Source: a virus. From it: DNA of 23,284 nt. Location of the stretch: the UHGV virus genome UHGV-0204798. One strand, given 5' to 3'. Below the pieces are notes generated by a model that worked only from the letters and a program-made list of their open reading frames with translations, searched no databases and was not told the origin of the DNA. A program made the position numbers and the translations under genes. Each line of letters opens with the position of its first letter. The stretch's first letter is position 1. Shown here in pieces: positions 7,977 through 8,045 of this stretch.

Positions 7977-7989
7977 CCTCACTGTGGGG
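7977..7989. promoter_or_regulatory. Operator-like imperfect palindrome CCTCACtGTGGGG
   Basis: 11 of 13 positions symmetric. Lies in the 5' leader of the leftward arc-ant transcript, between the -10 element and the arc Shine-Dalgarno. Confidence 0.45.
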
Positions 7990-7997
7990 TAGTCAAA

Positions 7998-8026
7998 ATT
8001 GTCACACCGTGCGTCATTGAAGTCAA
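7998..8026 (-). promoter_or_regulatory. Candidate leftward promoter for arc-ant (Pant-like)
   Basis: Minus strand reads TTGACT (plus 8021-8026), 17-nt spacer, TGn-GACAAT (plus 7998-8003). Its -35 overlaps the -35 of the divergent rightward promoter. Confidence 0.45.
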
Positions 8027-8045
8027 CCCCACCGTGGGGCATAAT
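8017..8045 (+). promoter_or_regulatory. Candidate rightward promoter for the Mnt-like gene
   Basis: TTGAAG (8017-8022), 17-nt spacer, CATAAT (8040-8045). The spacer contains the perfect palindrome at 8027-8039. Confidence 0.5.
8027..8039. promoter_or_regulatory. Operator-like perfect palindrome CCCCACcGTGGGG
   Basis: 13-bp site with perfect dyad symmetry around a central C, 50 bp centre-to-centre from the 7977-7989 site. The CCAC-N-GTGG core resembles the P22 mnt operator as I recall it. Confidence 0.5.

Follow-up and report, generated by a model that had tools for sequence, protein, structure and literature searches.

Whether a resident prophage stays silent is decided by antirepressor modules, through which one phage can also wake another. 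To our knowledge, immI of phage P22, from which the model proteins Arc and Mnt come, is the only well-studied module of this type. In P22, Mnt is the repressor of arc and ant, Arc represses mnt and has a moderating effect on ant, and the antisense RNA sar is directed against ant (PMC11016777). Units of this kind have been named 'ant morons' (PMC2629481). Here we analyze a stretch of 23,284 nucleotides of the virus genome UHGV-0204798 (the window), in which, as in P22 immI, a gene for a Mnt-type ribbon-helix-helix (RHH) protein was confirmed to be divergent from an operon made of an arc-type RHH gene and the antirepressor gene ant. We consider it likely, jointly with the three-operator mechanism described below, that an immI-type antirepressor module has its regulatory core in the region between them, at 7975-8045. 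The sequence there contains three evenly spaced candidate repressor-binding palindromes, not two, set in back-to-back promoters. Each part of this module is of a known kind: an antirepressor of P22 type, an antisense RNA and repressors of the Arc/Mnt RHH family. What is new, as judged from the literature searched, is the combination of three operators with back-to-back promoters and the repeated re-tuning of this design.

Three candidate operators in back-to-back promoters

A consensus promoter scan placed two sigma-70-type promoters in the region. The leftward one (P_ant-like; 7998-8026, minus strand), predicted to drive the arc-like gene and ant, combines the -35 hexamer TTGACT (8026-8021) with a 17-bp spacer, the -10 hexamer GACAAT (8003-7998) and a TG at -15/-14. 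The rightward one (P_mnt-like; 8017-8045, plus strand) has TTGAAG at 8017-8022 and, after a spacer of 17 bp, CATAAT at 8040-8045. The two -35 hexamers share 2 bp, at 8021-8022, and because of this overlap RNA polymerase probably sits on only one of the promoters at a time. The same two promoters with overlapping -35 elements had been proposed in the original prediction for this DNA, and the scan recovered them independently. Transcription is predicted to start near 7991 on the minus strand and near 8052 on the plus strand.

The original prediction also described an imperfect palindrome at 7977-7989 and a perfect one at 8027-8039. Both were read at exactly these positions, the former as CCTCACTGTGGGG and the latter as the perfect 13-bp palindrome CCCCACCGTGGGG. 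When CCNCACNGTGGGG was searched with at most one mismatch, four strand-matches were found in the window, all of them at these two places, while shuffled sequences gave an expectation of 0.12 and none of 100 shuffles reached four. The proposed distance of 50 bp between the two sites also stands (centres 7983 and 8033), but the count of two does not, since a middle site had been missed. A third CAC-N-GTG core lies at 8005-8011 within TGTCACACCGTGCGTCA (8000-8016), and its centre, 8008, is the exact midpoint of the other two, giving a spacing of 25+25 bp. The whole window has four copies of CAC.GTG, three of which fall in the 7975-8041 region; in 20,000 random placements of four such sites, three never fell inside 60 bp. 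The shuffles and random placements exclude a chance origin of the palindromes.

We refer to the three 17-bp candidate operators as O1, O2 and O3. O1 (AGCCTCACTGTGGGGTA, 7975-7991) has CCTCACTGTGGGG as its 13-bp core, covers about +1 to +17 of the leftward promoter and has the consensus tGCCcCAccGTGaGgCa among 52 homologous regions described below. O2 (TGTCACACCGTGCGTCA, 8000-8016) lies in the spacer of the leftward promoter and abuts the rightward -35 hexamer, and O3 (AACCCCACCGTGGGGCA, 8025-8041), with the perfect palindrome as its core, fills the spacer of the rightward, mnt-like promoter. The sites are kept apart by 8-bp spacers. Relative to the predicted leftward start they lie at about +9 (O1), -17 (O2) and -42 (O3), and relative to the predicted rightward start at about -69, -44 and -19, respectively.

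All three sites have the frame TG.C.CAC-N-GTG.G.CA in common. O3 is of the full CCAC-N-GTGG 17-bp type, O1 has TCAC on one side, and O2 reads ACAC/GTGC. The left half of O2 is at the same time the extended -10 element of the leftward promoter (TGTGACAAT, minus strand), and this double use accounts for the T at half-site position 3. O2 also departs from O1 and O3 at half-site position 5, with a purine instead of a pyrimidine in each of its halves.

Two further promoter candidates were rejected because of poor hexamers: a second leftward promoter with TTGACT at 7996-7991, a hexamer which is also not conserved in homologues, and another rightward promoter downstream of O3. An additional imperfect palindrome, AATTTAC-ttatt-GTTAATT, spans the predicted mnt start at 8043-8061, where most relatives read AATTTACTTATTGTGAATT. 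It is kept in a group of E. coli/Klebsiella type, and Proteus and Morganella carry other palindromes (GTAAT-N7-ATTAC). This could be a further binding site or plain leader sequence.

Conservation and changed specificity across homologous loci

Scans with the Mnt-like protein gave 26 species-level genome loci and 80 viral contigs. An Arc-like protein is also encoded in 85 loci, and the 52 distinct intergenic sequences among these were used as a footprint set, with hosts including Yersinia, Proteus, Xenorhabdus, Morganella, Kluyvera, Raoultella, E. coli and others. The consensus of the 52 regions is aatGCCcCAccGTGaGgCa-(7-10 variable)-aAgTGTCACACCGTGCGTCATTGntGTCAACCCCACcGTGGGGCATAATTT, and the sites are spaced 24-27 and 25 bp apart. 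The majority base accounts for a fraction of 0.88 in O1, 0.99 in O2, 0.98 in O3, 0.91 in the -35 block and 0.99 in the rest of the -10. The corresponding fractions are 0.61 in the O1-O2 spacer, 0.44-0.62 in the leaders and 0.70 at synonymous third positions of the invariant adjacent mnt codons. The sites and the promoter hexamers are thus far above the local neutral level, which indicates that they are under purifying selection. The original prediction had staked itself on the conservation of the palindromes in homologous loci, and they are conserved.

In the homologues, GTCAA of the -35 element, -11A and -7T are the conserved parts of the leftward promoter, and CATAAT and TTG of the rightward one are nearly invariant; the promoter scan found an equivalent of the rightward promoter in one homologous locus (L023) as well. 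A promoter spacer needs no particular sequence, yet the right half of O2 (GTGCGTCA), which is located in one, is invariant; this is consistent with adjustment of the site to a second protein or to a given affinity.

Phage TL-2011b (locus L001) shows a disturbed version of the arrangement. Its mnt-like frame (3434-3540) appears to be broken after about nine codons by an extra base, and the annotation restarts at an internal ATG. In the same phage (3375-3392) the equivalent of O3 is degraded to GCACACGGTGAGG, and the equivalent of O1 is a perfect CCCCACCGTGGGG. The break may reflect a decaying repressor gene or a sequencing error. A fourth operator in the arc-ant hairpin, where TL-2011b has CCCCACGGTGGCC, was considered and dropped, as the motif was present in 1 of 50 distinct loci.

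The DNA-reading strands in the window are Q-R-R in the Mnt-like protein and Q-K-R in the Arc-like protein. Loci of clade B (Serratia, Xenorhabdus) have three CTCAC-N-GTGAG sites and the repressor strand PQLRVRIP. Those of clade C (Acinetobacter, Pseudorhodoferax, Giesbergeria and a Xanthobacteraceae metagenome-assembled genome) have three ACCAC-N-GTGGT sites and the strand PQLK(I/V)RLP. In both clades the middle site is a full-consensus copy of the outer sites. The promoter scan recovered back-to-back promoters with one site in each spacer in an Acinetobacter locus, and the leftward promoter in a Serratia locus. Compared across clades, the candidate half-sites change together with the predicted DNA-reading strand of the repressor, and the scaffold is kept. 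A simple recognition code of one residue for one base was also tried across the clades and gave no clean fit to the data.

A fourth type was found in an E. coli prophage (NZ_CP148453, 2783-3277; L111), which has three GGTAC-core sites around cATTGATAGTCAA and the reading strands NPQVNLRLP in the Mnt-like and KVKTLRMPE in the Arc-like protein; these are conserved among its own relatives. Like the window, this cassette encodes Mnt-like, Arc-like and Ant proteins, and it is inserted at the same point of a closely related prophage backbone. Its -35 hexamers overlap as well (cATTGAnnGTCAA), each promoter spacer holds a site, and a further site lies in the arc leader. The cassette differs from the window in the GGTAC core, in the reading strands and in the spacing, which is about 21+22 bp.

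The clades also differ in what stands at the arc position. The 57-60-amino-acid protein encoded there in clade B had no Pfam match, either to RHH or to another family, yet the three sites are kept, which ties all three to the Mnt-like protein. This protein (MAIKVSQLNH...LAFELIEFAQQAAQEA) is conserved. Its gene, found in L018, L020, L021, L024, L025 and L128-L134, lies on the strand opposite to mnt, about 115-160 bp upstream of it, and genes for Bro-N-type antirepressors come next. In clade C the Arc-like strand is AQVKIRLP or VQLKIRVG, nearly identical to PQLKIRLP in the Mnt-like protein, and the three sites are alike, suggesting that both proteins read the same sites there.

Proposed regulation and its alternatives

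In a lysogen, the Mnt-like repressor would occupy O1 and O2 and keep arc/ant transcription off, probably as one tetramer per 17-bp site if the analogy with P22 Mnt holds. Silencing of the leftward promoter would free the weaker mnt promoter from competition; Mnt of P22 is likewise understood to help P_mnt by silencing the competing promoter. At a higher level of the Mnt-like protein, O3 would be filled and the repressor would block its own promoter and limit its own synthesis, a negative autoregulation predicted by the position of O3 in the mnt-promoter spacer. After infection, the Arc-like protein would be made together with Ant. This protein, whose Q-K-R strand resembles the Q-R-R of the Mnt-like protein, probably acts through the same operators; it may prefer O2 and turn both promoters down. 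A sar-like RNA, predicted below, would add antisense control of ant.

We regard this scheme, in which the Mnt-like protein blocks the ant promoter at O1/O2 and autoregulates at O3 and the Arc-like protein shares these sites, as the likely one. From the sequence we infer the start sites, the binding itself, the order of occupancy, the oligomeric state and the pairing of proteins with sites.

Several points weigh against the shared three-operator scheme. O3 is the best palindrome and among the most conserved sites, which is odd for a weak site that fills last; perhaps the sites fill in another order, or the Arc-like protein is the main user of O3. The symmetric purine difference of O2 could mark a site for a different protein. 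A spacing of 25 bp puts neighboring sites on different faces of the helix, so that simple side-by-side cooperativity is not obvious. A tetramer is a tentative assignment, as the AlphaFold2 model of the Mnt-like protein is poor and the C-terminal domain of the protein is unrelated to that of P22 Mnt. A single deposited phage genome out of 50,697, that of TL-2011b, has the operator block, and a literature search by names and by operator sequence returned nothing on this operator set or layout.

A bolder form of the proposal, which we put forward as a tentative possibility, is a bistable switch similar to the right operator (OR) of phage lambda, formed by RHH paralogues that use the same three operators in different orders of preference. 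The Mnt-like and Arc-like proteins would then act as CI and Cro do, in a second, independent on/off memory that decides antirepressor synthesis. The scaffold would be portable, with its specificity adjusted on at least four occasions by joint changes of reading strand and half-sites.

A different possibility is a strict division of the sites as in P22, with O1 and O3 bound by the Mnt-like protein only and O2 by the Arc-like protein only, which would repress both promoters from there. O2 is indeed placed as O_arc is in P22, in the spacer of the ant promoter. In the clade of the window, O2 forms a variant of its own that is nearly invariant and is marked by the two purines at half-site position 5, and it is only in this clade that the Arc-like strand (Q-K-R) differs from the Mnt-like one (Q-R-R). 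Clade B, which has no RHH match at the arc position, has O2 as a normal copy of the outer sites, and the Mnt-like gene was found upstream in 80 of 80 loci with an Arc-like protein. However, O2 keeps the TG.C.CAC-N-GTG.G.CA frame of O1 and O3, and its deviation is partly explained by its role as an extended -10 element. Two loci (L040 and L077) carry an outer-type right half of O2 with an unchanged Arc-like strand, and K-to-R variants of the Arc-like strand leave O2 unchanged (TL-2011b) or altered at one base (L014). The almost identical strands and like sites of clade C also suggest shared recognition, and the pattern in favor of the division comes from three clades only. Given the exceptions in L040 and L077, we rank the strict division as a rival, and an improbable one, to the shared use of three operators.

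It could also be argued that only the two 13-bp palindromes are operators and that the middle block is conserved merely as promoter sequence, as the left half of O2 overlaps the leftward -10 hexamer and the block abuts the rightward -35 hexamer. We consider this very improbable. Promoter function does not call for the invariance of GTGCGTCA inside a spacer, the middle site of clades B and C is a full-consensus palindrome, and three of the four CAC.GTG copies in the window fall here at the exact 25-bp spacing. Finally, it is hardly credible that the palindromes serve a host regulator or an RNA or DNA hairpin, or that they arose by chance: hairpin formation by a 13-bp palindrome is conceivable and the equivalent in L025 was flagged by a terminator scan, but with a loop of one base the hairpin is unlikely to be stable. 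Chance is excluded as described above, and in hosts from Enterobacterales to Acinetobacter and Betaproteobacteria the half-sites vary in step with the repressor strand that the phage encodes.

The loci compared here indicate that the compact P22 layout is not the common natural form of the module in Enterobacterales, Acinetobacter and some Beta- and Alphaproteobacteria; the common form they point to is a three-operator scaffold with back-to-back promoters and a built-in autoregulatory site. Since the operators co-vary with a short β-strand over at least four specificities, they offer a natural series for studying the RHH recognition code. The same series could be used for building orthogonal pairs of repressor and operator. 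The exact sites given here can be mutated in E. coli lysogens in studies of prophage induction and cross-talk.

The surrounding module and its described relatives

The Mnt-like repressor gene (8082-8456, plus strand) encodes 124 amino acids with the N-terminus MSREDPQLRIRLP. The protein matches Pfam Arc above the cut-off (E=3.1e-7), is 33% identical to P22 Mnt over the N-terminal 43 amino acids, and has the Mnt repressor structure 1MNT as its best PDB match (E=0.0016). The AlphaFold2 single-sequence model had a mean predicted local distance difference test score of 55.7, too poor for a fold search; secondary structure alone was used from this low-confidence model, and it predicts a helical C-terminal part. 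Among the Mnt-like genes L005-L110, the 40-amino-acid DNA-binding N-terminus and the operator block are conserved and are combined with at least five unrelated C-terminal domains. Total lengths range from 86 to 201 amino acids, and the commonest form (143-151 amino acids) looks alpha/beta rather than coiled coil. This variety suggests swapping of an oligomerization or sensing domain.

The Arc-like RHH gene (7792-7959, minus strand), the first in the leftward operon, encodes 55 amino acids with the strand YQRKVRFP. Its Pfam Arc match is below the cut-off (E=0.0028), and BLASTP against P22 Arc gave E=4e-5. A profile of its family matched 1MNT at 2.8e-4 and Arc structures at 4e-3. Aligned with P22 Arc by hhalign (probability 91%), its Q-K-R falls on the DNA-contacting Gln9-Asn11-Arg13 of Arc. 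The promoter scan, Pfam, profile and hhalign results together bear out the earlier suggestion that the palindromes lie in divergent promoters between two RHH genes. The antirepressor gene ant (6793-7719, minus strand) encodes a 308-amino-acid protein with P22_AR_N (E=7e-45) and P22_AR_C (E=3e-29) domains, which is 57% identical to P22 Ant over its full length.

A predicted sar-like antisense unit lies on the plus strand at 7688-7797, with its promoter (TTGATA-17-TATACT, 7688-7716) inside the first codons of ant. The predicted RNA, about 70 nucleotides long (approximately 7723-7795), has two hairpins, the second of which (7750-7784) forms a terminator with a T-run. The fold of the region has an energy of -28.3 kcal/mol and a z of -4.4. 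The stretch aligns with the arc-ant/sar region of P22, the TATACT -10 and a GAAGCCC...GGGCTTC stem being in common, and an Rfam search of 7400-8600 for sar or a known RNA gave sub-threshold noise only. With its set of homologous genes, the module is related to P22 immI.

The mnt terminator hairpin AAAACCCACCTGACGGTGGGTTTT (8444-8467) marks where the mobile module ends on the right. It has T-runs on both strands and should therefore also stop late transcription, or need antitermination of it. The late transcription concerned runs from the SLT-domain tail gene toward the baseplate genes, and the setting of this terminator recalls a reported effect of P22 immI on tailspike expression (PMC2629481).

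The module sits in the window between the SLT-domain tail gene and the baseplate genes. A module 98.8% identical to window positions 6793-8463 was found in E. coli NZ_CP062871 (L002, 5150-6815), flanked by lambda-like tail genes (C40 peptidase, minor tail protein L) of another prophage, and the match stops at the mnt terminator (window 8463). The presence of the same module in another tail operon, with the match ending at the terminator, shows a cassette that moves between unrelated tail operons. Related prophages hold other cassettes at the same insertion point, some of them LexA-family or P63C genes with an antirepressor. Locus L105 (approximately 1420-1500) has an orphan Mnt-like gene with O2 and O3 and without O1, arc or ant. 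A recombination joint lies immediately left of its O2, in which the base giving the leftward -11A is changed (TGCCACACC).

With P22 immI the module has in common, beyond the divergent RHH genes and ant, an antisense RNA unit across the ant start, if the sar-like unit predicted here is real. The mnt operator annotated in the P22 record (ATAGGTCCACGGTGGACCTGT) lies just downstream of the P_ant -10. It has a CCAC-N-GTGG core and the same place in the leader as O1, so that the resemblance to this operator pointed out in the original prediction holds good: O1 resembles O_mnt both in core (CCAC/TCAC-N-GTGG) and in its place in the ant-promoter leader. O_arc is in the spacer of P_ant in the P22 record, and O2 resembles it by position only; O3 has no counterpart annotated there. 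Whereas P22 has one Mnt operator and one unrelated Arc operator built of TAGA boxes, the window has three sites of one family, and an operator of the TAGA type is absent from its control region, where the three CAC-N-GTG sites are found instead. P_mnt fully overlaps P_ant in P22, the -10 of one lying over the -35 of the other, in contrast to the back-to-back promoters of the window, in which only the -35 hexamers overlap. The proteins also differ: the Mnt-like protein and P22 Mnt have unrelated C-terminal parts, and their reading strands are Q-R-R and H-N-R, respectively. By analogy, we expect the regulatory logic to match that of P22.

Mnt of phages L, ST64T and ST104 is closer to the window protein than P22 Mnt is, with about 49% identity over the N-terminal 39-43 amino acids. 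Phage L has a 17-bp perfect palindrome (AAGACCACGGTGGTCTT) upstream of mnt, and its CCAC-G-GTGG core is shared with the annotated mnt operator of P22 and with the window. Unlike the window, the mnt-only morons of phages L, ST64T and ST104 have a single site and no adjoining arc or ant. The morons of ST64T, ST104 and Para1 are described as mnt with one gene of unknown function (ε34 paper, PMC2629481). The CCAC-N-GTGG center found in the window, P22 and phage L points to a family trait.

In design, the region also resembles OR of lambda. There, OR1, OR2 and OR3, three 17-bp operators with centers about 23-25 bp apart, lie between the divergent promoters PR and PRM and are read by CI and Cro. As in lambda, one promoter in the window would serve a maintenance repressor and the other a small second repressor with a lytic-side function. 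Unlike the window, with its RHH proteins and overlapping -35 hexamers, lambda uses the helix-turn-helix proteins CI and Cro, and OR is the primary immunity switch where the module described here would control an antirepressor. The likeness to OR is thus best seen as an analogy of design and not as membership.

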